DNA of 32,000 nucleotides. It comes from Delftia acidovorans NBRC 14950 (GTDB lineage Bacteria > Pseudomonadota > Gammaproteobacteria > Burkholderiales > Burkholderiaceae_C). The notes below the pieces were generated by a model that worked only from the letters and a program-made list of their open reading frames with translations, did no database searches and was not told the origin of the DNA. Shown here in pieces: positions 777 through 23,632 of the stretch (within the stretch, counting starts at the first letter, position 1; the number at the start of each line of letters is the position of its first letter). The position numbers were made by a program, and so were the translations under genes. The DNA lies in NCBI RefSeq assembly GCF_001598795.1, contig NZ_BCZP01000019.1:1-32000 (forward strand), read 5' to 3'.

Positions 777-796
777 GGTCGAACCCTAGCCGGGGC
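777..796 (-). promoter_or_regulatory. Conserved intergenic motif, copy 1 (minus strand GCCCCGGCTAGGGTTCGACC)
   Basis: The plus-strand AACCCTAG core is at 782..789, exactly 36 nt from the A of ATG 746. Copies 2 and 4 have the same spacing. Confidence 0.55.
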
Positions 797-914
797 ACGC
801 GCTCCGCGAAAGTGTGCGACCAATTACATTTTCATTACTCCAATAGTTAGCAACGTAATAGTTGGCTTAATAAGCAATAGGCTTCCTTGATGAATCCACC
901 ACCCAATAGGGGGA

Positions 915-954
915 TTCTAAAAATGCATGAGCAAAACTATATTAGCATGCATGA
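915..954 (+). promoter_or_regulatory. Candidate sigma70-type promoter for the discoidin gene, bracketed by two ATGCATGA boxes
   Basis: TTCTAA (915..920), a 17-nt spacer, then TATATT (938..943). The direct repeat ATGCATGA occurs at 923..930 and 947..954, and each copy contains the palindrome ATGCAT. GGAGG at 966..970 precedes ATG 982. The -35 match is weak. Confidence 0.3.
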
Positions 955-981
955 CTTCACACACTGGAGGAGTAGTTGCAA

Positions 982-1722
982 ATGAAATATTTCAAGTTGG
1001 CTGCGGTGGCAATTGGTTCGGCGGCTGCACTGATAACGTCGAGCGCTTTTGCTCAGTACACCGGGGTCCTGCTACCCATCCAAATAACCAATGCCTCGGG
1101 CAATTTAGCAGACATGACCAAAGCCGCTGATGGAAATCCAAACACGGCATGGAATTCCGGTGGACCAGCAACTCAATGGATCGATATTGATCTGGGATCA
1201 GATCGAATGTTTTCAACTCTCCGCATGCTACCTTCGCAAAACCCAGCTGGCGGCACTACTCACAAGATTTGGGGGAGAAATGAAGCTGGAGCTTGGTTCA
1301 TCTTTGGTGAAGTTTCGAAGCTTACCCAAGACAACAAATGGATTGAGTTCAACAACATGATAGAGACCCCAGTAAGGTTTATCGTCGTTGAGACGACCAA
1401 CTCTCCATCCTGGGTTGCATGGCGTGAGTTTCAAGTATTCGATGGGGGTGAACTTCGCGAAAGTTGCTTCTCGAACGACTACAACCAAGGTTGGGTTCTC
1501 TACTCAGCATCAGGTCCAAGCGATAGATGCGCGCACACTCAAGGGAAATATCTCTACAAATTCCGCGACGTGAGCCAGCAACGATCTGGCACACGTGTCT
1601 TTGCTTGCTCCACTGCCTACACTTATGGCTGGAGCATAGTTCCAGGCGGAGCCCCAGGCAACTCCAACGGACGCTGCTCCGCATTCCAATCAAATAGACT
1701 TTATGTACTGGAGCGTGATTGA
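982..1722 (+). CDS. Secreted F5/8 type C (discoidin-like, carbohydrate-binding) domain protein with a Cys-containing C-terminal domain. Cargo (moron) gene.
   Basis: ATG 982 follows GGAGG. The signal peptide is MKYFKLAAVAIGSAAALITSSAFA/QY. The discoidin-like pattern reads ...AADGNPNTAWNSGGPATQWIDIDLG...RMLP...IWGRNEAGAWF...VRFIVVETTNSPSWVAWREFQVF. G+C is about 48% on a sampled line. The gene is on the opposite strand to the structural genes. Confidence 0.8.
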   Translation: MKYFKLAAVAIGSAAALITSSAFAQYTGVLLPIQITNASGNLADMTKAADGNPNTAWNSGGPATQWIDIDLGSDRMFSTLRMLPSQNPAGGTTHKIWGRNEAGAWFIFGEVSKLTQDNKWIEFNNMIETPVRFIVVETTNSPSWVAWREFQVFDGGELRESCFSNDYNQGWVLYSASGPSDRCAHTQGKYLYKFRDVSQQRSGTRVFACSTAYTYGWSIVPGGAPGNSNGRCSAFQSNRLYVLERD

Positions 1723-1816
1723 GCATAAAAGTACACAAGCAACAGCGCGCAGGGATTCGCCGTTATAGCTTGGTTAGGACTTGCTGGACTGCTGAGGGCA
1801 TGGCTACCATGCGTCT

Positions 1817-2107
1817 ATGCCCGGCATCATCTTCTGGCTGCTCGTGATCGCAGCCATCCTCTTCTTCAAGCTGACCACGCCCGCCGAGCGCCGCTCGATG
1901 ATCGAGGCCTACTGGCTGATCATCATCGGGCTCGGCGCCGTGGGCTTCATCTGGCAGCTCCGGCGGAAGGTCATCCGTTTCATTACCGTGCCTCTGCAGC
2001 CATCTCCCGCATTTGCTGTCGCAGCGCCTTTGGCGAGTTGTCCGCGATACGGTCGATCCGATCCTTGCCCATCTCGCGCACCTTCTTCCACACGTCGGGC
2101 ATCTTGA
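1817..2107 (+). CDS. Small predicted two-TM membrane protein. Its 3' tail overlaps the end of the giant gene.
   Basis: The sequence MPGIIFWLLVIAAILFFKLTTPAERRSMIEAYWLIIIGLGAVGFIWQLRRKVIRF contains two hydrophobic helices. Third positions are almost all G/C for about 57 codons. Codon bias then collapses where the frame overlaps 1983..2107. Confidence 0.5.
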   Translation: MPGIIFWLLVIAAILFFKLTTPAERRSMIEAYWLIIIGLGAVGFIWQLRRKVIRFITVPLQPSPAFAVAAPLASCPRYGRSDPCPSRAPSSTRRAS

Positions 2108-5100
2108 CGACGATGGGCTGCTCTGGATTGTTCTGGTTCCAATCGGCCAGCCGTGCGCGCACGCGCGCCAGGGCGCCCTCATCCTTGCGGAACAGCGCAT
2201 CCGCCCACTGCGCCTTTATCTCGCTGCTGGTCAGGCTGTAGAAGCTCTTGGAACGCTGCATGAAACTGTTGGCTTCCTGAATCTCAGCCACGCTCTTGGG
2301 CTGAAAGCCGACAGCCTTGGCCACCGCCTCGGCCAGCGTGGTGTCGATCACCTTGTAGCCCTTGGTGTCCTTGTACATGCCGCTGGCGGCCATGTCCGCG
2401 CCCTTGAACGCATTGCGCACCGCCGTGGGAGACACCTCCAGCGCGGCTCGGCCCGCTGCGGACGGATCCAGGTTCATCACGCCACCCACCAACTCGCGCC
2501 CTGCCGCGAAGCCGCGGGACACCAGATCGCCCGCCGGCCCCACCACCTCGAGCAGATCCCGTTCCCGGCTTTGCTTGGTCAGCAGCAGGCCGGTGCCGGG
2601 CAGCAGGTTGCCCATGCCCAGGCGCCCGGAAACATCGATGGGCGCGCCTGGCAGGCCCGAGACACCCTGCTCAAGGAACTCGGTCAGCTCCTTGCCCACG
2701 ATGCTGGCCAGCGCCTCCTTGCGCCACTGCTTGGAACTGAGGTTGTAGCCCATCATCTGGCCCACGCCGTCGATAAGGTCCTCGGCGTCCTCCATGAAGG
2801 GCACGCCGCCGGCGCCGCCCATCAGCAGCAGCATGGCAAGGGCCCAGCCCACCGCGCGCTTGCCCTCCGGGCCGCCCTGCTTCCACATCCGCTGCATCAG
2901 CTCCAGGTAGCTGACGGAATAGGTCTTGAAGACGAACAGCGTGCCGCCCACGGCGCCGCGTGCCCACTGGGGCTTGTTGGCCTTGGAATAGACGAACTGG
3001 GTCTCCAGCACGGCCTTGCGCGCGAAGGCGCCCGGATCATCCATGCCCTGTGCCTTGGCGATGCGGAAGGCCGCGATGAAGGTAGAGCGCCGGTTGAACT
3101 GCTCGGCCAGGGCGAAGGGCTGGCCCCAGGCCACCTTGGCGCGTTCCCAGGCATTGCCGGCCGCCGCGCGCGCATCGCCGGCCCGCGTACCGTCGCCAGA
3201 GCGCAGGCCGCCCGCGCCGCGCGCCTGGGCCATGAGCTGGTGCACTTCCTGCGGCGAGACCACGCCGTCGTCTTCGGCAGTTTGCAGGGCATGGGCCAAG
3301 TCCGTCTCATAGCGGAAGCTCTTGTCCATCCAGGATCGACGCATATCGTTCAGTGCCCGTGTCATTTGGCCGCTGGCCGCGCGCATGCCCCCGAACTGGC
3401 TGAGCCAAGGCAGCGTCACGGCAAAGGGCTGGGTCATGTTGACCACGGCCGAAGCCAGTGAGCCGCCCAGGTACTGCGCGAACAGCATCCCGCGCACGGC
3501 CTGGCCCTCTTCCTGGGGATCGCGGATGTAGCTGCGCAGGCCCATGGCCAGGTCCTTCAGCTCCCCCTGCTCCTTCGGGATGTCGTTGATCGCACGGTCC
3601 ATGGTGCCGGCATTCAGGCCCGCCGCGCCCTGGCGCGCATTGCTGTAGATGAAGTTGGCCACCACGCGGCCCACGTCTTGGCTGTAGCCCTCGATGCCCT
3701 TGCGCTGGATCAGGCGCTTGAGCGCGCTGTGGTTGTTCTTGGTCAGCTTCAGGTATTCATCGAACACCTTGCGCGTGGCCGCGTCGGCTTCCTTGCCCAC
3801 GACCATGTCCTTGAAGATCTCCAGTGTCTCGGGAGTGATGCCCGCGAACAGCTTGAAGGACTGCTGGCTCATGGTGCCCTGCGTGATCACTGCGCCAGGG
3901 AAGGCCTGGGCCATCTGGATCTTGGCCAGGTTGGCGTCCTTCATGGTCTCGTACATGCCGAAGTACTGACGGTTGCCCTCCTGGTCCACCACGTCCAGCG
4001 TGTACCGGCCGAAACGCGACAGCGGCGCATACCCGCCGTCCTGCAGATCCTTGGCCGTGGCCGCCCGGTCCACCACCATGTTGTTCAATTGCAGCAGCCG
4101 TTCGGCCATGTCAGGCTTGGCCTTGGCATCCTCCTGCAGCGTGGTGGTCAGCAACTCCAGGGCATCGGCCAGCTTGGGTGCGTCCAGCACCATGTCACGC
4201 ATCCCGGCGTACTCGTCGCCCAGCGCGCGCATCATGTCCGCGCGGGCCGTCATGTCGATGGAGCGGTCGATGGCCGCGCGGGCTTCGCGGTACAGGGCAA
4301 TCTGATTGGGCGTGGCGCCGAACATCGTCTGCAACTCGGCATCCGTCCAGACCGCTCCGGCCTTGAGCATCTTGCTTTCGAAGCGAGAATTCACCAGCGC
4401 TTCGTACTGGGCCAGCGGCAACCCGCGCCAGTCGCGCAGCATGCGGTCGTCCAGGCGGCCGGCGCGCAGCAGCAGCTGGGCCTTGTCGTCGGCGGGCAGG
4501 TTGCCGTACTTCTTGGCCAGCTCGTCCACCAGCACGGCCTTGCCGTCCACATCCCGGCCCCACAGCAGCGTGCCCTCGAAAAGCGGCTTGGCCACGGCCT
4601 TATTGTCGGCCGCCGAGACAGGGGTCTTGCGATTCTTGCCCACGAGGTCGCTGATGGTGTCCACGCGCGGGAGCAGGCGCGGCGCCCGGTCGGCCGCGTC
4701 GTTTGCCAGCATGGACACGTCATCGATGTTGCGCTGGGCGGTCTCGTAGACCGGCTTGAAGGCTGGCGCCCGCTCAGCCAAGTGGCGCATGGTGCCGACG
4801 GTCTTGTCCCAAACAGAGACCTTGCCTGGGTGGGACATCGTCTTCTGGAGCTGGTCCAGAGCGCTGTCCTTGATCTCGGCCAACCGGGAGCGGCTGAACA
4901 TGAGGTCTTCACCACCATCTCGGCCGGCGGCCTCCCGCGTGTTGATCTGCAGGAGGCCCCGCAGTACACTGGCCACTTCTCCTGAGGTGACCTTGCCGGT
5001 GTGCCCGGATGCCGCGACAGCTGCATCGGTCCCGGAATCCCTGGCCCTCAGGAGATTTTCTTTTGTGATGACGCTATGCAAGTACATGCGCTGCGTCTCC

Positions 5101-8100
5101 GGGTTGCGGTGCACCAGCACTGTCAAGATGTCATCGGCCCCCTTGATACGCACCGGCGCGCTCACAAAGAAGCTGTCCTGGTTGCTCTGCGTGGCCTGCA
5201 TCACGACCACGCCCTTCTCCAATACGTCCTTCACAGCTGCGAAGCCAGCTGCCTTGAACGGATTCATACCGTGCGCCATGCTGTCGCGGACAGCACGCTC
5301 ATCCAGCACCACGGCACCCAGTTCGGGATTCACGGCCTGGCCACCAGCATCGCGGAACATTTTGGCCGCCCAGGCACGCAGCAGCGGATAGCCCTGGGGC
5401 GCCTCATCCCCGCGCAGCACGGCCACGGGCTCGCCCTGCAGCACGCGAGCCTTGTCCACCAACGACATCTCGGCCACGCCACGGCTGAATGACGGTTCGA
5501 TGCGATCGGTCGCGGCGCGCTGCCCGCGCTCCACAAACTCGCGCGCCGGCAGGATGTAGCCCTGGATGATGTCGGCGTCCGAGAGCTTCAGCCCCCTGAA
5601 CCCGGGCACGTTGGCCCGCAGCCAGTTGCGGATGGCGGCCACGGCCCGGCGCACGAAATGCAGCTGCGGCGTCTTCTCGGCCATCTCGGCCAGCACTTCC
5701 TCGGCCGCGTGGCGCCGGCTCAGATCCGTGACGCCGCGCAGCCCATATTCCTTGATCTTGGCCGCCACTTCGGCATGGCGCATGGTGGCCACCTGGTTGA
5801 GGATCTTGTTCAGTTCCGGCCCGAACATGCCGCGCAGGCCGTGGTGGCCCAGCACCTCGTGGTGCAGCACGCGGGCCGCGTCGGTGGGCGTGTTCAGCTT
5901 GCTGGCCAGCAGGTAGGCGCGGCCTTTCCAGTAGAAGCCCTCGGGCGCGCCACTGGCGCCGCCGCTGCGCTGGCGCAAATCCGCGCGCCGCGCTGCCTCG
6001 GGCACGGCCGGGTCGTTCATGTCGAAGGCCACCACGACTTCCGGCCCGTTGCTCCAGCCCTTGCGGATGGCGTCCACCGTCTCACGCACCTGCCCCACGG
6101 CCTGGGCCCGCGCCGCATCCGAAAACGCCGCAGGCTCGGGCCGCATGATGCGCAGCAGGTTGGCCATCTGGTCATCGGTCAGGCCCTGACCATCGGCTTT
6201 GCCGCGCCGGAACGGCAGTTCCTCGGTGCGCTCCGCCGGCCCGGCCTTCAATTCGCGTGCGCTGGGTGGCGTGGCATGGGTGCGCTCGCGCACGCCCGGC
6301 ACATCCTCCCAGCCAGAGCCCTGCTTCTCCACCTGGCGCACCGTCACGCTCCAGACGCCATCGGCGTTGGCCGGCGTGTACGAGACCACGCGGACATGGC
6401 TATCCCCGTAGCCCTTCACGATGTTGCCCGGGGTGAAGTAGTCGGCGCGCGCCGCTTCCTCAGCGGCTGCCTTCTTGGCCAGGACGCCGCGAGGCTTTGG
6501 CTTGGCTGCTGCAGCAGAGGCCGGAGCCGCAGCCTGGACTGCACCCTCGCTGGTCGTGGAGCTGGGGAACTCGCGCGCGGTGCCCAGCAGTTCGCGGATG
6601 GGCGCATCCAGCCGGATCACCTTCACGTCCTCGCCGGCTTCGCGCGCAGCCAGCCACTGGTGGTGGCCGTCGAGCACATGCCCGTCGCGCGAGACCAAGA
6701 TGGACCGATTCCCACCCTCGAAACCTTTGGCCCGTGCCACGCGCTCGCGGCTGAATTCCGCCTGCGTGGGCTTGAGGCTGGAGGCCGGCACACTCTCTTC
6801 CTGGTGCGCAATGCCGCGGGCATTCATGAAGTTGACCATGGCGCCGCGATGCTCGGCCCGGATCTGCGGCATCTCCGCACGCGGCACGCCGATGGAGCCC
6901 GAGTCGCGGGAGAACTTGGCCCAGCCGTCGCCCAGGTCGCGGCCTTCCACGGAACGTACTGGCGCGCGGCCAGCAGGTGCTGCAGGTGCTGCAGCAGCAT
7001 CGGGCATGGCGGCGGCCAGCTTCTCTCGAACCTTGGGCGCCAGGTCAGCCCAGGCGCGCGTGTGCGAGGATGCCCGCGCCAGAGCGTTCAAGCCCTTGGC
7101 AGTCTTCGCCACAGCCTGGCGCTCGGCCGCCGGCATGCTGGTCCAGCGCTCGCTGGCGGCCAGCAGCTGGGCGCGCCGCGCGTCGTTCCCTTCCTTGGCG
7201 ATGGCCACGGCCTGCTGCTGACCCACCGTGGGCGCTGGTGCAGCGGCAGGCGCTACAGCGGCAGCCTGTTCGCTGGCGCCACTTCGGCCAGGTACAGCAG
7301 ATTGCACGCTGGCAGCAGGCTGTCCGGCACTGCCACCTCGCGGCCCAGCAGGCTGTGCATCTGCCGCGCGTCCTGCCGGCTGACCGCCCCCAGCCGCCGC
7401 AGCAGCCGCAGGGCCTGCTGGGCGTTCATCTGCCAGCCGTACTGCAGGTGCGGTTGAATCATCGGTTGCTCCTTGAGGTTGCATGGCGTCAGCAAGACGG
7501 AGCTGCAGCTCCGCATTCAGGTTCTCCCAGCGCGCGCCGTGGAGACTGCCTTTGATGGCAGCATTTACACCGCCCACACGCTTGGCCAGTGCCTTGCGCT
7601 CCGCGGTGGGCATGCTGGCCCAGGCCGCGCGCCCGGCGTCGATGCGCTGGGCAGGGGTTTGGACTGGCGCTTGAGCCTGCGAGCCTGGCGCTGCAGCTGC
7701 TTGCGCGCCATCGTGCTGAGACGAGGTGGTGCCATTGCTCAGCCCCTGCGCAGCTGCAGGACCTGCAACCGGCGCTCCCTGCGCTCCTGCTGCCTGCGAA
7801 GATTCCGCGCGCGGCGGCTGGGCTTGATCGGCTTGTGTGCCATCGATGCTTCCTTGCTTGGGGGTGGTGGATGTGGGCGCAGGCGCGGTGGCACGGGCCT
7901 GCTGCTCGCGCTCAGCGCGGCGCCGCTGCAGCTCGTTGGCCAGCGGCATGCGGACTTCCTTGGCCTGGGCTGAGCGGAAGGCATTCGACAGGTCCTCATC
8001 CGTCCAGGTGGCCAGGGCCCCGCCCTGGATCTCGCCGGTGGCAGGGTCTGCAGTTACCCGGCGCTCGGATGCCTTCTTCTTGGCTGGCGCGCGTGCAGCT

Positions 8101-9647: not shown

Positions 9648-9677
9648 CCCCCCACTCTCAAGGAGAGGTGCGGGGGC

Positions 9678-9697
9678 GGTCGAACCCTAGCCGGGGG
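9678..9697 (-). promoter_or_regulatory. Conserved intergenic motif, copy 2 (minus strand CCCCCGGCTAGGGTTCGACC)
   Basis: The AACCCTAG core is at 9683..9690, exactly 36 nt from ATG 9647 of the giant gene. Confidence 0.55.
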
Positions 9698-10118
9698 CGG
9701 ATGCAGAGCAGCCCCTGGGCGGTGGGGCGTATTTTGATCGGGAGGACAGCGGCCCACTCTGGAGATGGGCATTTCCTTCTGCATTTGCCCCCGAAGGTGC
9801 CGCCGCGCGGTCCAGCGAGTCCATTGCGATGTCGATAGCCGCGCGCGCCCTGGAGAAATCGACGGTCCAGCTGGTGTCGGGTGCCAGCGGCAAGTCTGGC
9901 CGGTCGGTGGCCACGCAGCCGCCGTGGAAGTCGAACTCGCGGCGCGCGAGCAGTAGCACGTCGCGCACATAGGCCAGGTCGGCGTCGGCGGGCCGCGCGC
10001 CCGCTTCAGCCCGCCGCGCCGCAGCCCTCGCACGATGCGCCGCGCACAGGGCTACGCAGACCAAGGCAAGCGCCAGGAGCAGCGCACCGGAGAGGATGAG
10101 GATGGGGAGATGTGCCAT
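9687..10118 (-). CDS. Hypothetical single-pass membrane protein (143 aa)
   Basis: The N-terminal helix is MAHLPILILSGALLLALALVCVALCAAH. G/C-rich third positions persist through about the first 110 codons. The 3' end overlaps motif copy 2. A degenerate motif copy lies 34 nt upstream. Confidence 0.55.
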   Translation of the reverse strand: MAHLPILILSGALLLALALVCVALCAAHRARAAARRAEAGARPADADLAYVRDVLLLARREFDFHGGCVATDRPDLPLAPDTSWTVDFSRARAAIDIAMDSLDRAAAPSGANAEGNAHLQSGPLSSRSKYAPPPRGCSASAPG

Positions 10119-10227
10119 GCCCCAGTGTCAGCACCGGGGCGGGATCGCGCGAACCCTGGGCGTGGCTGATGGGTGTGGTACTGGGCGCACTGACGCTGCA
10201 GGTCACGTGGTAGCCCAGAAGCGACGA

Positions 10228-10300: not shown

Positions 10301-10822
10301 TCACGCACCTGCCAATTCTCGATGTAGAAATGTAGACTCGGAGTGTTTCGAAAGCATGTCATAGACATACATCGTTTTCACATTATTTGCCGCCGCTGCG
10401 TCGGGTATTAATATTTTACGCCGTTGCGCAGGGTTGCTTAGCTCCTGTGTCACCACCGTGTAGTTATACGCTTTAGCCACAGCAATTAAGAAAGCATCAG
10501 CCACTTCATTCTTGGCAAATTCTTTTTTTGCGTGCTCTTTAAAGTTACTGGCGTTGGCCCACTGCATTATTGAGCCATACTCCGCCATTACCTTAACATC
10601 AGCCATGTCGTCAATAAAGAACGTGGCAGGCAAAGTTTTGACCCAGGCGCAGCAGTTATCTTCCCGAGCAGTTAGTTCATCTTTAACTTTTTTTATCGAG
10701 TAGACAATGCCGTTGTCGTGCGCCACTTTGAGCCAATCCCAAAATCCACCGCAAAAATCGAAGCGATAGTACATGTTCTTGGCTTGGATGAACACATTGG
10801 CGTCAATAAGATACTTTGCCAA
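10301..10822 (-). CDS. DUF4411-type PIN-like nuclease domain protein (putative toxin/effector)
   Basis: It starts at TTG, preceded by GAGAGGTG. The N-terminus (M)AKYLIDANVFIQAKNMYYRFDFCGGFWDWL matches the DUF4411/PIN-like pattern as I remember it. A later acidic motif reads ADAFLIAVAKA. It begins 2 nt after the upstream stop. The sequence is AT-rich. Confidence 0.8.
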   Translation of the reverse strand: MAKYLIDANVFIQAKNMYYRFDFCGGFWDWLKVAHDNGIVYSIKKVKDELTAREDNCCAWVKTLPATFFIDDMADVKVMAEYGSIMQWANASNFKEHAKKEFAKNEVADAFLIAVAKAYNYTVVTQELSNPAQRRKILIPDAAAANNVKTMYVYDMLSKHSESTFLHRELAGA

Positions 10823-10824
10823 AC

Positions 10825-11961
10825 CTACACCTCTCTTTTCCTGTAAAGCTCGGCCACTGCATTCGAAGAAATATTAAGCAACGCGCCAGCATCCCTAAGC
10901 ATCACACGACCAGCAAAAGCCTCGGAAACTAAGGCATTGGTAAGCTTTTTGCTATTTCTTACAAGAACTGTTTTGTAATAATCGCCACCGCCATCGGCAT
11001 TAGCTTTTGCATCGTTTGCTTTCGTTTGGTGCAGCACACTTAGATACGACTCCTTATCCATAAGATCAAGATCCATCGCCCTCTTCGCAATCACCAACCG
11101 ACTCACCTTGAAATAATTTGGAAGTCTGTACAACGCAAGATCTCCCCAAACGTTCCACTGATCCAAAAATTCATTTTCAGGTGTCAGCACCTCAGCTGCA
11201 ACTTGATTGCACTTCTGCTCTAGTCCATCAAACCTACCAAGTACAGAGACAGACACATCAGATACACCGCTTGCACCAAGCCAAATGTGCGCTATTTCAT
11301 GCAGCAGAGTAAAAATCCACGCTGCCGCACTATCTTTCCCATTAATAAAAACGACTGGTGCGAATTTATCCACCAAAGCAAAGCCGCGAAATTCTTCAAC
11401 ATTAAGTGGCTTATGAGCATTGTTTTGCACAACGCCGTTTTTGAACACCAGTATGCCTGCTGCCTCTACACGTTTAACCAACTCCGCGTAATACTGTTCT
11501 TTAGTATCACATTTAACTCTAAGCGCGACATCGCACCCAAGAGTCGCAGAGATGCTCTCGGCAACAGCTTTTGCAGAAGCGGTTTTTTGGTCAAAGCTTC
11601 CAACAAACGGAAGTTGATCAGCTTCACAATCTTTTAAAAATTCCGAATACCATTCCTGTTTCTTTTTTACATCAGCCAACGTGTCAAAAAAAGCTCGCGA
11701 GAGCCGCTTTGCGCCTGGCACTTGCCGCAGGTCGGGTATTTCTGGATCGGGGATGTTAGGCGGCTCGCGTAAGAAAAGGAAGCCGAAAGGCACCTGCGCA
11801 ATGGAGGCAAATTTTTCTGCCTGCTTCGCGGTGAGCTTGCCATCCATAACTTGCTGAGTCTTCGAGGGACCTGCGACACGGGCAGCAAGTTGCTCGACAG
11901 TGGAACCTATGTTCCCTGCCGCCCACTGGAGGACTTCTGGTGCGAGACTGAGCGTTGCCAT
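10825..11961 (-). CDS. HTH (XRE-like) plus ImmA/IrrE family (COG2856, Peptidase_M78-like) zinc metallopeptidase
   Basis: The HExxH motif is LLHEIAHIWLG, with downstream ...CNQVAAEVLTPENEF typical of ImmA/IrrE. The N-terminal ~70 aa are helix-turn-helix-like. The sequence is AT-rich. It forms an operon with 10301..10822. Confidence 0.8.
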   Translation of the reverse strand: MATLSLAPEVLQWAAGNIGSTVEQLAARVAGPSKTQQVMDGKLTAKQAEKFASIAQVPFGFLFLREPPNIPDPEIPDLRQVPGAKRLSRAFFDTLADVKKKQEWYSEFLKDCEADQLPFVGSFDQKTASAKAVAESISATLGCDVALRVKCDTKEQYYAELVKRVEAAGILVFKNGVVQNNAHKPLNVEEFRGFALVDKFAPVVFINGKDSAAAWIFTLLHEIAHIWLGASGVSDVSVSVLGRFDGLEQKCNQVAAEVLTPENEFLDQWNVWGDLALYRLPNYFKVSRLVIAKRAMDLDLMDKESYLSVLHQTKANDAKANADGGGDYYKTVLVRNSKKLTNALVSEAFAGRVMLRDAGALLNISSNAVAELYRKREV

Positions 11962-14449: not shown

Positions 14450-14467
14450 GCTCTTCTCCTCCTGCTC

Positions 14468-15588: not shown

Positions 15589-15653
15589 GAGCCTCTGCGG
15601 TTCATGCCAGCGCGGAAAGAGGCGTCACCGCCCCTTTTGGCCGCGCGGCGGGG

Positions 15654-16133: not shown

Positions 16134-16164
16134 GATTGGCTCCTTTGGAAGTTCAGAAGCGAGA

Positions 16165-16183
16165 CAGGGGGCCGCGCCCCCTG
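16165..16183 (-). terminator. Stem-loop directly after the major capsid gene (possible partial terminator or attenuator)
   Basis: Minus-strand CAGGGGGC-GCG-GCCCCCTG followed by TCTCGCTTCTG. It lies between stop 16193 and ATG 16133. Confidence 0.4.
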
Positions 16184-16192
16184 CCCCAGGCC

Positions 16193-17479
16193 TTACAGGC
16201 GGCGGCCGAAGATCGGCACCACGGTGTCGATCACGGTGGCGCCGTGGTCGGTGAACTCGACCCGATCACCCATATCCACGGCGAAGCGGATCTTGGAGGC
16301 GCCCAGAATGCCGCCGATCAGCGATTCGAGCTTGTCCTCGAAGTCGTCGTCCTGCTCCTTCCAGAAGTACGGCAGGCCGTTGTGGCGGCTCTTGGCGTAG
16401 CCCTTGGCCAGGGCCTGGCCGCCCAGCAGAATGGCGCGGTCCACAGCGAAGGTTTCGCCGAAGGACTGGGGCACGATCACGCCGGCCTCGGTCTCGCTGT
16501 CGAACTCGGTGCAGTACTTGATCTGATCACCAGCAAAGAAGCGGATCGGCTTGGGCATCTTCACGATCAGCACGCCGCCCCACAGGGCCACCTCGGGATT
16601 GCGGAACAGCGGGTGGTCCTTGGCATTGCGCGCGCGGGCCAGGGCCTGGGCTTGGTAATTCCGGAAGTTCGGGTCGGTGGAGAACTTCTCGTACTGGGCA
16701 TCCGACACCAGCAGCACCCGGAACGGGCTGTCCTTGGCCATCTCGTCGCCATTGAACTCCACGGGGGGCGGCGGGAGCACCATCTGGCCGATGAAGCTGC
16801 GGATGGCGTCCACGTTGGACATCTTCATGATGTCGGCCGTGGTCAGGTCCACCTCGCCGGCATTCACCTTGAAGCGCTGGACCGAATCCCCGTCCACGAT
16901 GAAATGGCGGTTCTTGGTCGGAGCCTTCACGCGGTTGACCACCACCTTGTTGAAGCGAGGATCCGCCGCGAGGGGGATGCGCCAGGTGATGTTGTCTTCG
17001 AAGCCGCGCGCTCCTGCCATGTGCACCAGCGACAACTGGTCCTCGTAGTTGTCCATGGCGCTTTGCAGCAAAGGCTTGGCCAGGCGGTAGATATCGACGG
17101 GGCTGCGCACCTCGTCCATCACGCCGCCCAGGTCCAGCGGGAAGCGGGCCTGGTTCACGCGCAGACGGTCTTCGGACAGGCTCACGCCCTCGCCGCGACC
17201 GGCAGCGTACTCGCCGCCCATGATGGGGATGCCGCCAACCGGGTTGACGAAGTTGAACTTCAGCTCGTCGCCCTTGCCCTTGCCCAGGTCCATGGTCTGG
17301 ACGATGGGCATGGTATTGCTCGTCTGATTGGCAATCGAGCTGGCGGCAGCATCGATCTTCGGGAACTTGCCCGTAAGACGGTTGATGTTGGAATGGCGCT
17401 TCTGCGTTGCAGTGAAAACGCCCATGGCCTGCTGGACAAGCTTTTGCTTGTCGCTGGCCGACATTGCGGTTTTGGTCAT
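16193..17479 (-). CDS. Major capsid protein (428 aa)
   Basis: GAGGA lies 6 nt before ATG 17479. The size and its position after the scaffold gene fit a capsid gene, and a hairpin follows it. It possibly belongs to the N4-gp56-like capsid family, from memory only. Confidence 0.8.
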   Translation of the reverse strand: MTKTAMSASDKQKLVQQAMGVFTATQKRHSNINRLTGKFPKIDAAASSIANQTSNTMPIVQTMDLGKGKGDELKFNFVNPVGGIPIMGGEYAAGRGEGVSLSEDRLRVNQARFPLDLGGVMDEVRSPVDIYRLAKPLLQSAMDNYEDQLSLVHMAGARGFEDNITWRIPLAADPRFNKVVVNRVKAPTKNRHFIVDGDSVQRFKVNAGEVDLTTADIMKMSNVDAIRSFIGQMVLPPPPVEFNGDEMAKDSPFRVLLVSDAQYEKFSTDPNFRNYQAQALARARNAKDHPLFRNPEVALWGGVLIVKMPKPIRFFAGDQIKYCTEFDSETEAGVIVPQSFGETFAVDRAILLGGQALAKGYAKSRHNGLPYFWKEQDDDFEDKLESLIGGILGASKIRFAVDMGDRVEFTDHGATVIDTVVPIFGRRL

Positions 17480-17496
17480 GTCAGTCCTCGCTCAGT

Positions 17497-18561
17497 TCAG
17501 GTTTTTCGGCTCAGGAACGCTTCGCGCTGTTCTTCCGTGAGGTCGTTCATCGCGTTGAAGAGCTCCACGCCTTGGAGCGAATCCAGCCGTTCGAACAGTG
17601 ACCCGCCACCCGGACGGCCACCCGGGATGTCCGAGAGGCTGTGAGGCACGGGCACTTCGAGGGCCGCCAGCTTTTCCTTGGCAGCGTTGGCCGGGTCGTT
17701 CGGAGGATCCTTTGAAGCGGGCGCGGCGGAAGCGGCAGCTGCGGCCTTGTAGTCCTTGAAGAGCTCGATCACCTGCTCGGTGGTGCCGCCGTCCAGCACG
17801 CCGCGAGCGGCGCTTTGCGCGTAGCTGGGCATGGCCTTGAGCCACGCGTCAAACTCCGCGCTCTGGGCGATGGAATCCACGTCGGGGTGTGCCGTGTAGA
17901 TGGCGTTCGTGTGCACTTCATGGGCCGAGGCATGGCGGTGCTGACGCAGCGGAGCCAGCTCGCGCTCGACTTCTGCCTGCAGTTCCGCCTTCAGCTCTGC
18001 CTTGAGCTGCTCGCGGGTGGCCGCGTGCAGCTTCAGCAGACCGGCGCGAAGCCCTTCTTCCGAGTAGTCGCCGAACAGCTCCGGATCCGCGCCGGCCTCG
18101 ATGGCCGCGCCTGCCTGCGCTGCCAGCTTGTCCGTCTCGGTCGGTGCCTTGCCATCGGCAGCGCGTTGGCCCGCCTGTGCCTGCAGCTCGGCCAGGGCGG
18201 CCTCTGCTGCGGTGGCACGGGCGGTCTCACGCTCGGCCTCAGACTTCCAGCGCTGTTCGCCCTGGCGTGCCTGTTCCAACTTCTCGTAGGGGATGGTGTG
18301 CTTGCCGTCTCGGGCCAGCACCACGGCATTCGCCGGGTCTGGCTCGGCCGGCGCAGCTACGCCCCCTGGCTTCGCTACCGCTTCCACAGCGGGTGCAGCA
18401 GGAGTGTTTGCCGGATCAGTGGCGGTCGCTGGCGCGCCGCCGGGTTCCTCGGACACAGCCGAGGTATCGCCATGCAACCCAGCGTTGAGCATCTGGGTCA
18501 ACTGATCGGCCGACAGTTCGCCGCCCGCGCTATCCAAAGAATCCTGATGTGATGTCGTCAT
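17497..18561 (-). CDS. Scaffolding protein
   Basis: It sits between portal and capsid and is Ala/Glu/Gln-rich with a helical character (...ELQAQAGQRAADGKAPTETDKLAAQAGAAIEAG...). I prefer ATG 18561 over the TTG at 18603 used in the track. Confidence 0.7.
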   Translation of the reverse strand: MTTSHQDSLDSAGGELSADQLTQMLNAGLHGDTSAVSEEPGGAPATATDPANTPAAPAVEAVAKPGGVAAPAEPDPANAVVLARDGKHTIPYEKLEQARQGEQRWKSEAERETARATAAEAALAELQAQAGQRAADGKAPTETDKLAAQAGAAIEAGADPELFGDYSEEGLRAGLLKLHAATREQLKAELKAELQAEVERELAPLRQHRHASAHEVHTNAIYTAHPDVDSIAQSAEFDAWLKAMPSYAQSAARGVLDGGTTEQVIELFKDYKAAAAASAAPASKDPPNDPANAAKEKLAALEVPVPHSLSDIPGGRPGGGSLFERLDSLQGVELFNAMNDLTEEQREAFLSRKT

Positions 18562-18646
18562 GCCTGTCCCGCCACATATCGCCGTGGCCGCATGGGCCAG
18601 CAATCCGGAGCAGCGCCTGGGCGCCGCGCCATCTGCTCTTGAATCC

Positions 18647-18664
18647 GCAGCGCCGAAGCGCCGC
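18647..18664 (-). promoter_or_regulatory. UUCG-loop hairpin in the scaffold leader
   Basis: Minus-strand GCGGCGC-TTCG-GCGCTGC. One position pairs only as G-U on the minus-strand RNA and is an A-C mismatch on the plus strand. This favours a function as minus-strand RNA. Confidence 0.4.
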
Positions 18665-18725
18665 AGTCATCGCCACAGCGACATGCGCCATGGCTTGAAA
18701 GCAGTGTCAAAAAGCGGGGGAGGAA

Positions 18726-18745
18726 AGACCAACCCTAGACGGGGC
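18726..18745 (-). promoter_or_regulatory. Conserved intergenic motif, copy 3 (minus strand GCCCCGTCTAGGGTTGGTCT)
   Basis: The AACCCTAG core is at 18731..18738, just downstream (minus sense) of the post-portal terminator. Its distance to the scaffold ATG is 170 nt, unlike the other copies. Confidence 0.5.
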
Positions 18746-18751
18746 GGGAAT

Positions 18752-18773
18752 GGAAAAGCCGCCCGAAGGCGGC
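18752..18773 (-). terminator. Rho-independent terminator after the portal gene
   Basis: Minus-strand GCCGCC-TTCG-GGCGGC followed by TTTTCC. It starts about 20 nt after the portal stop at 18794. Confidence 0.6.
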
Positions 18774-18793
18774 ATGGGAATGGCGGCAGGGCG

Positions 18794-21139
18794 TTACGCG
18801 CCGGCGGGTAAGTTGTCGGCATCGGAGGGCGTCTCGATGCCCTGCATGCCGCGCGACGGTTCCTGCGGGATGGGTGGGAATGTGGGGCTGGTGTTCTCGT
18901 GCACCTGGCCGATGTCGCCGACCGCGCCCGGCCCGCCCGCCTGCGGCACTGGGCCACCAGGCGCCGCGTCCGGTACCGGAAAGTCAGGATCGTCGCCACC
19001 GGGACTGGGCTTTCGATAGCCGGCGCCCTGCATGATGGCGTCGGCAATGGGCGCGATCAGCGGGTTCGCTGCCACCTGGGCCCCGCCCTGCATCGAACTG
19101 AAGGCCGATTGCACGCCCTTGAGCACGGCTGCCGCGACGGTGTCTTGGATCTGGGCATCGGTAAGCCGCTCCTTGATGTCCAGTTCGCGGGCCTTGAGGT
19201 CGTGGCCGGCTTTGGTCAGGGCCGCCTGCACCTCCTGCTGGATCCGCTGCTCGACCTGCTCCGGGCTCTCCTGGGAGCCGGCCGCGCGCAGGGCCTCGAT
19301 GATCTCGCGCTTGTACGGCGTGTCCATGAGCGCAACCATGTAGGGCATGGCGGCCTGCTGGAACTGTGGCGGCATTGTCTTGATGACCTCCTGCATCGCA
19401 TACAGCTGCTGAGAGCGATAGCCGGGCGTGCTGGGCACGTCCTCGAGCTGGACCTTCAGCAGGGTCCGCTGCACGTCGTTGCTCAGGTAGGTGTAGCCGG
19501 CCGGGTCGGTCTCGATCTTGTTGAGCACCACCGACCGATCCTCGGTGACGGCATCGCCCTCGATGATCACCGTCTTTTCCTTGGCGCCCAGGTCCTGGAC
19601 GATCATGGCCAGCAGCATCTCGCCCATGAGGGTGCGCGCGCGCCGGAAGTTGCCCATGATCTCGCCCAGCGCCTGGTTGGCCTGCTCCAGCTGAGTGCGC
19701 TCCTGCAGGCCGCTGGTCGCATTGCCGCGCTGGCCCGTGAAGGCCGCCGGCGCCGCGGACAGCTGCTCGAAGACCGCGCGGCAGTCGTTCATGAGCTGGT
19801 GCTGCTGATCGGTGAGCTGAACATCCCGCTTCACCTCGAAGCGCGCGCCATCCTTTGCCATGTGCTCCTGGTTCAGCACCACATGGGCGTTGCGGCGGCC
19901 GATGGTGCGGCGCAGGACCGCGTCCGGCATATCCGTCGCGCCCTTGGTGTTCTCGACCCGGTAGGCGGACAGCCCCCAGCGCATGAGCGCCGTGCCACTG
20001 TTCAAGCTGTCTTGCTGGTAGATCAGCCCGCGCACGTAGCCATAGGGCACGCGCGTGGAATCCTCGCGGAAGCCCCAGAAGATCACGTAAGGGAAATGGC
20101 TGTGCGGATATGGCGACGGGCTGTCATGCAGCTTGTGCGGCCCGAGCCAGTAGCTGCGGCGCACCTTGGCCACGATGGCCTTGAAGGCCTTGGTCATGCC
20201 CGTGGCTAGGCCGTAGTTGTGGGCCTGGTTACCCGCGTCGTACTCGACCACGCGGCCATCGGGCGACTCGATCAGAACCACCTCGACCCAACGCCGATAC
20301 CAAAGCTCGGTCAGGCACAACTGCTTGTTGGTGCGGTCGTACCAGCGCGCTTCTTCCACCGTCCAGCCGCGCGCATCCTGGCCCGCATTGGTCAGGCCCG
20401 TAGTGCTGCCGCCCTGGTTGGCCAGCCGTCCCGGGTAGCCCTGCTGCCACCAGGTGGCGCCGTTGCGCCCGCAGGACAGTACCAGTTCGCGCGCCTGCGG
20501 AAATGCGCGCGCGATGCGCTCGGGGTGCAGCCATTTGTCCCGCTTGAAATACCGCGCGTCGCTGAGATCCCACTCCTCGGCAGTCCAGTCCCAGCGCACC
20601 TCGCTGCGGCGCACGACCGCGCATTTGTAGCGGTACTGTGTTGGATCACTCACGCGCTGCACGCCCACGCAGCCAAAGCCCACGGCGGCCTGGGGCCGGA
20701 AGGCATCGCTGCAGGCATTGTCTGCATGGGACTCCCGCTCGGCCTCGTTCAGCTCGACGTTGAGTGCGTCGGCCACATCCTTGCTGCCCGTCTGGCCGTT
20801 GGCCGTGACGCGCCAGTCCGTGCGCGTGGTCTGCTCGTAGCCCGTGAGCGCACGCAGCGTGGGCCCGATGCGGTCTTCAATGGCCGGCGGAATGCCCTGC
20901 TCCTTCATGGCGTTCAGCAGCTCGGTGTCCAGCTGCTTGCCGTCGGCATAGTCCATCTCCTTGTCGGCCGCGATGCGCCATGGCGGCTCCTCGTCCATCT
21001 CGCGCAGCCATTCCGTGTATTCGTGGAGCGACACCTCGCCCTCACCCATGCGCAGATCATCATCCCCGGCGTCGAGAGAACCCTCGGATTCGGGCGAGTC
21101 CACGTCCATCGTGCTGGTGTTGATCAATTGAGCCTCCAA
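18794..21139 (-). CDS. Portal protein (781 aa)
   Basis: It lies immediately downstream of terL and overlaps it. The size and acidic N-terminus fit a portal protein. The start is uncertain: TTG 21139, in-frame TTG 21127 (preceded by GGAGG) or ATG 21109. Confidence 0.75.
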   Translation of the reverse strand: MEAQLINTSTMDVDSPESEGSLDAGDDDLRMGEGEVSLHEYTEWLREMDEEPPWRIAADKEMDYADGKQLDTELLNAMKEQGIPPAIEDRIGPTLRALTGYEQTTRTDWRVTANGQTGSKDVADALNVELNEAERESHADNACSDAFRPQAAVGFGCVGVQRVSDPTQYRYKCAVVRRSEVRWDWTAEEWDLSDARYFKRDKWLHPERIARAFPQARELVLSCGRNGATWWQQGYPGRLANQGGSTTGLTNAGQDARGWTVEEARWYDRTNKQLCLTELWYRRWVEVVLIESPDGRVVEYDAGNQAHNYGLATGMTKAFKAIVAKVRRSYWLGPHKLHDSPSPYPHSHFPYVIFWGFREDSTRVPYGYVRGLIYQQDSLNSGTALMRWGLSAYRVENTKGATDMPDAVLRRTIGRRNAHVVLNQEHMAKDGARFEVKRDVQLTDQQHQLMNDCRAVFEQLSAAPAAFTGQRGNATSGLQERTQLEQANQALGEIMGNFRRARTLMGEMLLAMIVQDLGAKEKTVIIEGDAVTEDRSVVLNKIETDPAGYTYLSNDVQRTLLKVQLEDVPSTPGYRSQQLYAMQEVIKTMPPQFQQAAMPYMVALMDTPYKREIIEALRAAGSQESPEQVEQRIQQEVQAALTKAGHDLKARELDIKERLTDAQIQDTVAAAVLKGVQSAFSSMQGGAQVAANPLIAPIADAIMQGAGYRKPSPGGDDPDFPVPDAAPGGPVPQAGGPGAVGDIGQVHENTSPTFPPIPQEPSRGMQGIETPSDADNLPAGA

Positions 21140-22671
21140 TCGGTCTCTTCGGGTTCTTCGTATTCGTGGCGCTTGCTGCCGGGCTCAGGAATGCCCTGGA
21201 CAAAGGTCATTGCCACCGCGTCGCCCTTGTCAGGGGAGCGGCCAAGCGCCTTGCGGATGTCGTCCTTGGAAAGCATCTGGATCGCCGCGACCCGGCCCAG
21301 GGTCACAACCTTGTAGCGAACGGCTGTCAGGTCGGCCAGCAGCTCGGGGTCCGGCGGCAGCGCAATGGGATTGGGGTTGGTTGGGTCCAGGGCCTCACGC
21401 AGCAGCCAGTACATCTCCGCGCGCCGGTTCCGGAATCGCAGATTGCCAGCCATGGTCATGGCGTTGGACGTTTCCGAGCCGTTGACCGCGAGCACCAGCA
21501 GATTCAGTCCCACGATGAAATCCAGGGCGCTGGAGCCGATGCCGATGCTGTCCACGCAGATGCACGCACCGTCGCGCACTAGGGGCGTGACAAAGCCCGC
21601 AGTGGTCGGGCCGTCCTTGGTGACCGCGCCGGGCACGGTGATCAGTTCATCGAACCAGGCGCCGTGGCGCCGCGCCGCCGAGGTCTTGTCGATGCCGCCG
21701 CGCGCCGGGTCCAGGCCCAGGGCCGTCATGCCACCCTTGGCTTCGCGCGGCTTCCACCGGGCCTGCGCCGCCTTCACCCATTCGGTGGGGATCACCTGCC
21801 AGGCCGGGTCCGCGCTGCCGGCATTGAAGTCGCCATTCAGCATCTTGCTGCGTAGCGGCTCAGGCAAGGACTGCAGCGTGGCCTTGTAGCCCGTGGACAG
21901 CAGGAATAGGTTGTCGTTCACGCTGGAAGGGATGAACGTCCGGCTCTTGGGCGTCATCAGGTCCGGGCCGACCATCACGGGCTCAGGGCCAGGCACCTCC
22001 TGGTCCTCGCCCTTCTCATTGGTCACGAACCAGCGCAGTTCGCCCGGCTTTGCCGGGTTCGGGTGCGAAGGCTCCAGCCACGGCGCCCAGAAGCGCTTGA
22101 CCCACTCGCCTTCGGGCTCGGTGGGCGGATTCCCCGCGCACACCACACGCTGCCGGATGGTCGGGTCATCGGTGCGCAGCCAGCCAATCAGGGACCGGAA
22201 TTGCAGTTCGGTGAAGTGGGTGATCTCATCGAAGCCTTTGAAGTCGTGCGCGCGGCCCTGGTACTTGATCCAGTCGCCCGGCTCCTTCACGCTGCCCAGC
22301 TCCAACACCTTGCCCTGCGGCAGCCGCCAGATCCCGTCCTGGCTGTTGTAGCCATCGCGCGTACCCAGGATCGATGTCATGCGCTCTTCGATGCCGGTGA
22401 GCTGCACGGACTGGCGCCGGAAGATGATGCTGTGCTTTTGCTTGGTCAGCGGCAGGCCGAGCAGCAGATCGGTCTTGCCGCCGCCGGCCGCGCCGCCGTA
22501 GAAGACGATATCGGCGTCGGATTCGAAGGCCACGGTCTGGGGGCCAGGCTGCGGGACCCAGATCGGCGCATCGCCAGACAGCAGCAGGGAGTCCAGCTCC
22601 GCGCGCGTGTCCGCGTCCAGGCCCTTGAGCAGATCCAGGATGTCGGCTGTGGTCAGCGCGGGCGTGGTCAT
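21124..22671 (-). CDS. terL: Terminase large subunit
   Basis: Walker A-like FYGGAAGGGKTDLLLG. ATGA overlap with terS. The size and position fit. Confidence 0.9.
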   Translation of the reverse strand: MTTPALTTADILDLLKGLDADTRAELDSLLLSGDAPIWVPQPGPQTVAFESDADIVFYGGAAGGGKTDLLLGLPLTKQKHSIIFRRQSVQLTGIEERMTSILGTRDGYNSQDGIWRLPQGKVLELGSVKEPGDWIKYQGRAHDFKGFDEITHFTELQFRSLIGWLRTDDPTIRQRVVCAGNPPTEPEGEWVKRFWAPWLEPSHPNPAKPGELRWFVTNEKGEDQEVPGPEPVMVGPDLMTPKSRTFIPSSVNDNLFLLSTGYKATLQSLPEPLRSKMLNGDFNAGSADPAWQVIPTEWVKAAQARWKPREAKGGMTALGLDPARGGIDKTSAARRHGAWFDELITVPGAVTKDGPTTAGFVTPLVRDGACICVDSIGIGSSALDFIVGLNLLVLAVNGSETSNAMTMAGNLRFRNRRAEMYWLLREALDPTNPNPIALPPDPELLADLTAVRYKVVTLGRVAAIQMLSKDDIRKALGRSPDKGDAVAMTFVQGIPEPGSKRHEYEEPEETDWRLN

Positions 22672-23582
22672 TTCTCACCCCGCTTCGCCGCGAGCGTGGC
22701 CAGCAGCATGGCCGCGCCTGGCCCGCCGTTGAGCAGTGCCGCCAGCCGCACAGCCCGCTCTGCATCGGTCATCTGCTTGAGCATGAAGGGATCGCTCTTC
22801 TGCTCGTTGTCCTTCTCGTAGAGGCCGGTGTGCTTGAACAGCTTCTCCAGGATGGCCACCTTGTCATGGAACATGACCTCGATGCCGTACTTGCCTTCCT
22901 TGGCGCCGGCATACAGCGCACGCGCGGGCGTGCTGAGCCTGCGAGTGTCCTTCGTCACCACGCGCGAATGGCCATCGCCACCGCACTGCGGGCAGTCTGG
23001 GCTGGGCTCCAGCAGAGGGTTGAAGCCAATGCCGCCCTGCTCATCGAAGTCTGCCGGCGCATTGCCCTTCACGGCCCAGAGCTCACGGTCAGCATTCATC
23101 TCGCCCACCGTGCGCTGGTAACGGTTGCCCTCGCCAAAGCAGTGGCGGCAGCAGCCGGTCTTGACCTCAACCAGCTCACGGGGATCAGCAACCAGGATGT
23201 TCAGGGCCTCGGTGAGCACGCGGTCAGCACTGACCTGGGTGCGCTCCTGCTGCTGCTTCCGTGCCTCTGCGATTGCCGCCTGCAGGTAAGGTTTTGCTAG
23301 GTTTTCAGTAGCAATCTGTTTGGCCGTGTGAACGCTATAGCCGGCGCGGATGGCGGCCTGGGCACCGTTGAGGTCAACGAGGTACTCCTCCACGAAGCGC
23401 TGCTGCTTCGGAGTCAGAGTCTGGGCATCTGCAGCGTTGGCCTGCAATGCCTTGCGTACAGGCTTCTTGGCCGCTGGACGCTTCGCAGGAACGGCAGAGC
23501 CTGCGGCCTTCTTCACGGCTGCAGGCTTCTTGGGGACTGGTTTCTTTTGAGGCTCGGACTTGCCGGCAGGACGTTGGGCCAT
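22668..23582 (-). CDS. terS: Terminase small subunit (Terminase_2-like core) with a Lys/Pro/Ala-rich N-terminal tail and a Cys4 insert
   Basis: LTPKQQRFVEEYLVDLNGAQAAIRAGYS is the classic small-terminase HTH signature. The N-terminus reads AGKSEPQKKPVPKKPAAVKKAAG... The Cys pairs CCRHC (nt ~23139..23155) and CPQC (22971..22994) are present. Confidence 0.88.
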   Translation of the reverse strand: MAQRPAGKSEPQKKPVPKKPAAVKKAAGSAVPAKRPAAKKPVRKALQANAADAQTLTPKQQRFVEEYLVDLNGAQAAIRAGYSVHTAKQIATENLAKPYLQAAIAEARKQQQERTQVSADRVLTEALNILVADPRELVEVKTGCCRHCFGEGNRYQRTVGEMNADRELWAVKGNAPADFDEQGGIGFNPLLEPSPDCPQCGGDGHSRVVTKDTRRLSTPARALYAGAKEGKYGIEVMFHDKVAILEKLFKHTGLYEKDNEQKSDPFMLKQMTDAERAVRLAALLNGGPGAAMLLATLAAKRGEK

Positions 23583-23612
23583 GACTGGGAGTGTTCCCGC
23601 ACGACCTGAGGA

Positions 23613-23632
23613 CGTCGAACCCTAGACGGGTC
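23613..23632 (-). promoter_or_regulatory. Conserved intergenic motif, copy 4 (minus strand GACCCGTCTAGGGTTCGACG)
   Basis: The AACCCTAG core is at 23618..23625, exactly 36 nt from terS ATG 23582. It lies at the head of the late/structural gene block. Confidence 0.55.

Follow-up and report, generated by a model that had tools for sequence, protein, structure and literature searches.

The 32,000 nucleotides (nt) of Delftia acidovorans NBRC 14950 analyzed here (contig NZ_BCZP01000019.1, positions 1 to 32,000; hereafter the window) belong to a temperate, F116-like podovirus of Delftia/Comamonas, of which they cover the early-right and late region, and a 17-base motif recurs in them at the heads of late genes. 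The motif is followed at a fixed offset by a hexamer of the form nAnAnT, and where it abuts a start codon, the ATG is embedded in a covarying hairpin and usually lacks a Shine-Dalgarno sequence; this arrangement is conserved across phages. We consider it moderately probable that these elements form an activator-dependent late promoter, at which transcription would start on the ATG itself, inside a hairpin that masks the AUG. For this promoter, we infer the start site, the identity of the activator, and a gating function of the hairpin.

Motif, hexamer, and start codon geometry

A pattern search of the window with CCCGKCTAGGGTTSGWC returned four exact matches, each on the minus strand, compared to no match in any of 100 dinucleotide-preserving shuffles, which bears out the four copies reported in the initial annotation. 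The 8-mer core CTAGGGTT was found solely at these four sites. A weight-matrix scan for the motif together with the hexamer identified five sites with scores of 20.6-37.4 bits, compared to 5.9 bits for the next best site. The fifth copy, initially described as degenerate (CACGCCCAGGGTTCGCG, 10148..10164, minus strand; upstream of a gene for a protein of 143 amino acids (aa)), can therefore be regarded as genuine at its 20.6 bits, and it has orthologues in the relatives L037, L041, L046, and L066. All five sites are located in gaps between minus-strand genes of the late region, in one orientation relative to transcription, and the scan of the window found no site in the early/immunity region. 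Within its 17 bases, the motif has no dyad symmetry beyond CTAG.

The copy upstream of terS (CCCGTCTAGGGTTCGAC, 23614..23630, minus strand) is an exact match scoring 37.4 bits, and the homology of relatives ends exactly at its 5' edge. The hexamer AACACT (23590..23595, minus strand) follows 18 nt past the motif and 7 nt before the ATG at 23580-23582, without a Shine-Dalgarno sequence, and the hexamer is the center of a hairpin (23577..23606, minus strand; predicted -15.3 kcal/mol, with covariation in the family) whose 3' arm pairs with the terS ATG. The same parts are found on the minus strand at three further sites. Two of these are exact matches and weight-matrix sites: the copy at 9679..9695 (hexamer GAGAGT, 9654-9659; ATG, 9645-9647; hairpin, 9645-9678), upstream of the gene for a giant internal-virion/polyvalent protein, and the copy at 778..794 (hexamer GAAACT, 754-759; ATG, 744-746; hairpin, 738-773), which lies upstream of the head-closure Hc3-like gene and downstream of a low-GC insert with a plus-strand gene. 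The third is the degenerate copy (hexamer GACACT, 10124-10129; ATG, 10116-10118; hairpin, 10119-10140). From the core AACCCTAG to the ATG, the distance is 36 nt at 746, 9647, and 23582 and 34 nt at 10118, as originally measured. The in-frame TAG ahead of the downstream open reading frames, to which attention had also been drawn, is present in the window but incidental, since related copies have spacers of 29-32 nt.

The remaining copy, copy 3 (CCCGTCTAGGGTTGGTC, 18727..18743, minus strand), is likewise an exact match and heads the scaffold/capsid leader. A terminator-like hairpin (18758-18773) lies immediately upstream, confirming that this copy follows a post-portal terminator as first described. 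Its hexamer GACACT (18703..18708, minus strand) has the same 18-nt offset with no adjoining ATG, and the start is predicted near 18695-18696. This layout of motif and hexamer without an adjoining ATG also occurs in Pseudomonas phage F116 and P. stutzeri phage 8P.

An information-content profile of 41 non-redundant motif copies showed high information at motif positions 1-17, values near zero in the spacer, and a renewed rise only at positions 20, 22, and 24. This rise reflects the hexamer nAnAnT at positions 19-24 after the motif (A20 in 33/41 copies, A22 in 27/41, T24 in 33/41), variants of which include AACACT, GAAACT, GAGAGT, GACACT, AATCAT, CAGCAT, and CAAAGT. The hexamer lies 18-19 nt past the motif, and its position is more constant relative to the motif than to the ATG, the gap to which is 7 nt in 20 clusters, 6 nt in 12, 5 nt in 5, and 8 nt in 2; a pyrimidine usually precedes this ATG. 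Where a start codon is present 5-8 nt past the hexamer, it is ATG in 39 of 40 family clusters. Furthermore, the hexamer offset is kept in copies without a hairpin or a nearby ATG, namely copy 3, F116 copies 2 and 3, the relatives L003 and L066, and four of the five 8P copies; in the leaders of L003 and L066, a canonical AAGGAG is present. The initial description of the stretch between motif and ATG as unconserved is therefore not right, as it contains both the hexamer and, in the spacer, a covarying hairpin.

At the copies that abut an ATG, the spacer and the first codons fold into this hairpin, which is absent from the leadered copies. The mean fold energy of the family is -15.7 kcal/mol compared to -9.8 kcal/mol for shuffles, whereas chance genomic matches to the motif show -9.1 versus -9.0 kcal/mol. 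The axis of complementarity coincides with the center of the hexamer, some 10 nt ahead of the ATG. When 29 different 31-nt leaders were aligned without gaps, a single fixed register had 68% of cells paired, compared to 28-43% with slid partners, and its covariation score of 0.235 (versus 0.056-0.115) was reached by none of 500 shuffles. Outside the hexamer, stems and loops of the hairpin vary among the family. Pairing includes the AUG in 34 of 49 predicted folds. G.U pairs involving the U and G of the AUG are frequent, and the sense strand is more stable than the antisense strand in 33 of 49 cases (33 versus 16). This sense bias points to an RNA-level, or at least a sense-strand, structure.

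The motif-driven genes starting at 746, 10118, and 23582 are devoid of a Shine-Dalgarno sequence, the pairing energies being -4.3 to -4.7 kcal/mol and the pairing misplaced, compared to -8 to -10 kcal/mol for neighboring genes, with good sequences at 14449, 16133, 17479, 22671, and 30303. Moreover, the cro-like gene (31269-31535, minus strand) has a canonical TTGATC-17-TATCAT promoter (31535-31569) located 5 nt before its ATG and no Shine-Dalgarno sequence, and the layout of this promoter is the same in the homologues of L042 and L030. This suggests that the cro-like gene is expressed from a leaderless early transcript, and since its promoter abuts its ATG, leaderless starts are plausible in this phage.

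Related phages, candidate activator, and gene setting

The motif was found with the same spacing in approximately 50 related prophage contigs as well as in Acidovorax phage AP1, F116, and 8P, so that both the motif and its spacing are kept across related phages. A scan of IMG/VR revealed 66 motif loci, with many contigs harboring 2-3 copies. In a scan of 185,579 species genomes (596 Gb), clustered matches were confined to Delftia and Comamonas and lay in phage gene contexts. The other genomic matches were scattered singles in unrelated high-GC organisms, without an ATG at a fixed distance, a hexamer, or excess folding; several hundred chance matches are expected in 596 Gb at uniform base composition, and the scattered matches served as a built-in control. 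A host repeat element, such as the REP-like element that had initially been considered, was therefore rejected: there are no clusters outside prophages, and the remaining matches are single and of the chance type. The motif extends to a phage group with hosts among both the beta- and the gamma-proteobacteria.

AP1 has three copies, and in each of them the core is 43 nt away from an in-frame ATG (18338, 32940, and 41633). F116 also has three copies, and at terS CCCCTGTAAGGTTCGAC is followed by 31 nt and then by an ATG at record position 22776. Five copies of CCCCTGTAGGGCTGGMC were identified in 8P, and in the metagenomic relative L186, CCCGGCTAGGGTTAGGC is again followed by 31 nt and an ATG. 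Motif-driven genes in relatives include a holin and tail-fiber assembly proteins. Judged by this conserved architecture, several deposited or automatically called starts in F116, AP1, and L186 look wrong: for terS of F116 (L185, 7581), which is annotated with a CTG at record position 22851, the architecture points to the ATG at 22776, and the starts would move from 18320 to 18338 for terS of AP1 (L184), from 41612 to 41633 for a second AP1 gene, and from 7435 to 7456 for terS of L186.

The homology of relatives stops exactly at the 5' edge of the motif, with at least 8 different upstream sequences for terS alone, and several of these close with terminator-like hairpins and T-runs 6-14 nt before the motif. 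The motif core can pair with the next approximately 10 nt in the 8P (L189/L190) terS copy (TGTAGGGCTG..CAGCCCTGCA), and self-pairing of the core was likewise seen in L005-type terS leaders (GGCTAGGG..CCCTAGGCC); this pairing was rejected as a general feature of the family.

A likely candidate for the late activator is the 182-aa product of the gene at 25048-25596 on the minus strand (PHROG 8117), which had already been named as a candidate regulator and turned out to be a good one. Its structure model (pLDDT, a predicted local accuracy score, of 90.6) shows a winged helix-turn-helix spanning residues 27-83, together with a beta unit of three strands and a helix of 65 residues. When the model was compared with the PDB and with predicted structures of viral proteins, solely the winged-helix part had matches, to generic DNA-binding folds such as those of DtxR and GntR. 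Among the non-structural proteins of the window, this product alone has a homologue in each of the six comparison sequences that carry the motif, with identities of about 37% in F116 (F116p37), 30% in AP1, 38% in L186, 48% in L015, and 29% in L012 and L051; 8P also has a winged-helix homologue. The gene lies directly upstream of the terS motif where no insert intervenes, with its stop codon two bases away from the motif in L051. The family comprises 255 clusters at 50% identity and is nearly always annotated as "hypothetical" across 41 phage records. Neither the window protein nor 65 homologues matched the Mor/C Pfam family.

The minus-strand genes around these elements include those for a replication O-like protein (28631-29647), a Holliday junction resolvase (26681-27346), and an HNH-like protein (25593-26117), followed by terS (22668-23582), terL (21124-22671), the portal (18794-21139), the scaffold (about 17497-18561), the major head protein (16193-17479), the giant 2554-aa protein (1983-9647), and the head-closure Hc3-like gene (from 746 leftwards). 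The giant protein joins internal virion protein D-like, LPD3, and DarB-like regions, and its N-terminus is highly variable among relatives, with at least 6 N-terminal sequences behind the same promoter.

With respect to late transcription, each of three low-GC islands immediately precedes a motif copy. They carry a DUF4411 gene together with an ImmA/IrrE-type (RmrA-like) regulator (10301-11961), a PsyrT/ShosT-like phosphoribosyltransferase with a GTPase-like protein (23648-24798), and a plus-strand discoidin-domain gene (976-1722). In L186, a minus-strand PAAR/DUF4123/Tox-REase-5/Imm52 cassette (4434-7017), similar in kind to type VI secretion effectors, sits between the winged-helix gene and the terS promoter, and thereby separates the early operon from terS.

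Between copy 3 and the scaffold ATG (18559-18561) lies a leader of approximately 165 nt (18562-18726), the conserved non-coding part of which (18562..18702, minus strand, by alignment) reaches that ATG. It is near-invariant where portal and capsid proteins are only 50-60% identical, and its 3' end is common even to 8P. A frame-breaking indel in the alignment shows that it is not coding, and four hairpins with little covariation were predicted within it. No Rfam family matched anywhere in the window, this leader included.

Proposed late promoter and rival explanations

Since terminators or opposite-strand genes lie upstream of the motif copies, the latter at window copy 1, at the AP1 copy with its core at 32897, and in L186, transcription must restart at the motifs. 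Together with the conserved spacing and the absence outside prophages, this agrees with the initial view of a phage-specific late regulatory motif and makes a promoter or activator site its most likely function. In the promoter that we propose, the motif would bind a phage-encoded activator and would span roughly -48 to -32 (core TAGGGTT, -42 to -36), overlapping or replacing the -35 element, and nAnAnT would be a weak -10 element retaining A-11 and T-7, the two most important bases. Host RNA polymerase would then start at the A of the ATG and produce a leaderless mRNA, and a start at the ATG would account for the fixed 36-nt distance between core and ATG. The idea that the motif fixes an approximately 30-nt 5' untranslated region (UTR) is not supported, because the -10-like hexamer, 5-8 nt before the ATG, puts the motif in the -35/activator position and makes the ATG the predicted start.

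Any RNA that begins further upstream, possibly in prophage-expressed inserted genes or the early operon, would fold the hairpin and thereby hide the AUG, while a correctly started late transcript would lack the 5' arm and be translatable. Such a gate would block the synthesis of terS, head-closure, and giant injected proteins, and of holin and tail-fiber assembly proteins in relatives, from read-through, and the accessory genes just upstream would be expected to be expressed in the lysogen. At the scaffold/capsid copy and some copies of relatives, the motif and the hexamer are kept in front of a normal leader, and the restriction of hairpins to the ATG-abutting copies agrees with such a gate. 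Of the other functions originally suggested, translational control survives in altered form, in that the hairpin pairs with the ATG, and an RNA processing site has no specific support. Tentatively, and with considerable doubt, we suggest that part of the late program of F116-like phages of Pseudomonas, Delftia, Comamonas, and Acidovorax could be a regulon of leaderless mRNAs, with a winged-helix activator that would position RNA polymerase to begin on the AUG, a -10 element at the hairpin apex, and translationally silent read-through from prophage-expressed defense and accessory genes upstream. The inverted repeat of the hairpin may possibly also help to melt the GC-rich promoter by presenting the -10 bases in single-stranded form.

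Several observations weigh against a promoter of this kind. The start site is placed by geometry only, and the RNA-like G.U pairing would suit a start upstream of the hairpin equally well. One L028-type cluster has TTG instead of ATG at the expected position, and the giant-gene copies carry a G-rich, Shine-Dalgarno-like run adjoining the ATG. The hexamer is devoid of a T at -12, and the -35-like part, read as TCGACn with a spacing of 17 nt or as TTCGAC with one of 18 nt, agrees with TTGACA at four of six bases at most, with variants drifting further; this poor match implies activator dependence. With respect to the activator, the winged-helix homologue of 8P is partial and encoded elsewhere in the genome, not adjoining terS, and no motif was found near the genes of the distant homologues L187 and L188, which gives no sign of coevolution between regulator and site. 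Finally, the motif is asymmetric, yet the long helix of the candidate suggests a dimer.

The strongest of the alternatives, which follows the initial idea of a fixed UTR, takes TAGGGT itself as the -10 element, with transcription starting just after the motif and the hairpin of a 30-nt UTR acting as a translational operator or stabilizer of the 5' end, its loop bases bound by a protein. TAGGGT fits TANNNT, the hairpin with its G.U pairs behaves like sense-strand RNA, and the frequent pairing of the AUG (34/49 predicted folds) is as expected; the lack of a -35 element upstream of the motif in the aligned family copies is also counted in its favor. We nevertheless regard it as unlikely. It leaves the constant offset of nAnAnT unexplained in copies without a hairpin and with a distant ATG, all five 8P copies read TAGGGC and have thus lost the T at -7, and the degenerate copy of the window reads CAGGGT. 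Furthermore, a hairpin of -15 to -25 kcal/mol over an AUG without a Shine-Dalgarno sequence would need an extra unfolding factor. A start at the ATG is favored because the hexamer is kept without an ATG, because of TAGGGC in 8P, because ATG is used in 39/40 clusters, and because the cro-like gene provides a precedent.

An element acting at the RNA level within one long late transcript, comparable to boxA/boxB of lambda nut or to Com/mom of Mu and serving antitermination, processing, or translational activation, appears improbable. The layout, in which a conserved linear box precedes a hairpin by a few bases, would suit it, as would the upstream terminators that an antiterminated polymerase could pass. 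However, hairpin sequences and loops are unconserved except for the hexamer, leadered copies have no hairpin, and copies are found behind opposite-strand inserts, where no sense transcript is expected. Moreover, no Rfam family matched, and the window has five copies at gene starts instead of one or two at operon starts.

Even less probable is a repressor roadblock comparable to the stoperators of mycobacteriophage L5, by which late genes would be silenced in the lysogen. The motif would suit it as an asymmetric, intergenic site with all copies in a single orientation relative to transcription. However, only 3-5 sites per genome are present, all at the heads of late genes and none in the early/immunity region, and each is accompanied by a -10-like hexamer at the distance typical of a promoter. 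Least credible of all is a recombination or module-boundary sequence for the exchange of accessory cassettes: homology does break exactly at the 5' edge of the motif, with low-GC inserts just upstream, but the motif is at only one boundary of a cassette, its fixed geometry with hexamer and ATG would be unexplained, and conserved promoters would yield such breakpoints as a by-product.

Mimicry of a tRNA T-arm (GGTTCGA) was rejected, as the flanks have no conserved stem. By inspection, no extracytoplasmic function (ECF), sigma-54, or sigma-32 promoter consensus fits. N4 virion RNA polymerase, a phage-encoded single-subunit enzyme, recognizes a small DNA hairpin centered near -11, which the hairpin centered near -10 resembles. 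An N4-like hairpin promoter was rejected as well, since no RNA polymerase domain was found in the giant protein, which has been related in the literature to internal virion protein D only (PMC4819975, PMC5217972).

If a promoter starting at the ATG is correct, it provides a late promoter consensus, CCC(G/C)(K)(C/G)TAGGG(T/C)T(S)G(N)C followed after 18-19 nt by RANACT, for widespread temperate, transducing phages including F116. It also names a candidate activator family among proteins called "hypothetical" and corrects the annotation of start codons, for example those of F116 and AP1 terS. Beyond this, a hairpin embedded in the promoter would tie the synthesis of late proteins to the exact start of transcription, which suggests how phages tolerate accessory and defense genes directly upstream of packaging and virion genes.

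Comparison with known systems

A literature search for the motif string returned unrelated primers only; the 2005 genome paper on F116 (Gene) was outside its scope and may mention the repeat. Likewise, no late regulator or promoter for the F116 group was found in the reachable literature. While the ingredients are each known singly, that literature appears to contain no description of the motif, of the candidate activator, or of the way in which the ingredients are combined here.

For the T4 genes e, soc, 49, and I-TevI, the late promoter is located in the DNA for the 5' strand or loop of an inhibitory hairpin, and only late transcripts are translated (PMC3014915). As in T4, a start codon in the window would be sequestered by a hairpin on longer, upstream-initiated transcripts, and late transcripts without the 5' arm are predicted here; that an RNA hairpin pairs with the translation start is indicated by the covariation, the G.U pairs, and the fold energies relative to controls. 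However, T4 relies on gp55 and a TATAAATA promoter, which is absent here, and keeps a leader with a Shine-Dalgarno sequence on its late transcripts, in contrast to the motif with a weak -10, the hexamer at the hairpin apex, and the predicted leaderless transcript described here. Unlike in T4, the putative regulon is small and extends across a temperate phage family.

The C protein of Mu, like Mor, serves several late promoters with non-consensus -10 and -35 elements and a shared activator site overlapping their upstream half (PMC4461284). By geometry, the putative activator site would lie at -48 to -32 and overlap the -35 region in the window, where the five copies are limited to the late region. 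The candidate activator has no homology to Mor/C, though, and its site is without dyad symmetry. Mu late mRNAs are not known to be leaderless.

In Gram-positive phages, the regulators RinA and Ltr are encoded directly upstream of terS and act on a promoter in front of it (PMC3152322, PMC3753634), which resembles the position of the winged-helix gene and the putative action of its product. There is no sequence relationship, and one late operon promoter in those phages contrasts with 3-5 dispersed copies here.

The nearest published motif at a fixed distance from an ATG is the start-associated sequence (SAS) of Cluster K mycobacteriophages, a 13-bp motif with AGGAG located 3-7 bp from the start among non-structural genes (PMC3203893). 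Both are asymmetric repeats in one orientation at a fixed short distance to the start codon, with a strong ATG bias, and both are missing from the host genome. In contrast to the SAS, the motif described here lies 29-32 nt from the ATG of late genes, has no Shine-Dalgarno core, and is separated from the start by a -10-like hexamer. Lambda nut sites have a conserved hairpin loop bound by an N-like protein and are located after early promoters. The elements described here differ from them in their variable stems and loops, their location at late gene starts, and the lack of an Rfam match.

With respect to leaderless starts, the closest parallel is lambda cI, which is leaderless when transcribed from P_RM, has its -10 element 6-8 nt before the ATG and no Shine-Dalgarno sequence, and requires the ATG. 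The window genes have in common with it the gap from the -10-like hexamer to the ATG, the missing Shine-Dalgarno sequence, aside from the G-rich run next to the ATG in giant-gene copies, and the ATG start. However, the known leaderless cases in Proteobacteria are single regulatory genes, whereas here a set of virion and packaging genes would be placed under one activator motif, and a set of leaderless structural-gene mRNAs would be unusual among Proteobacteria.

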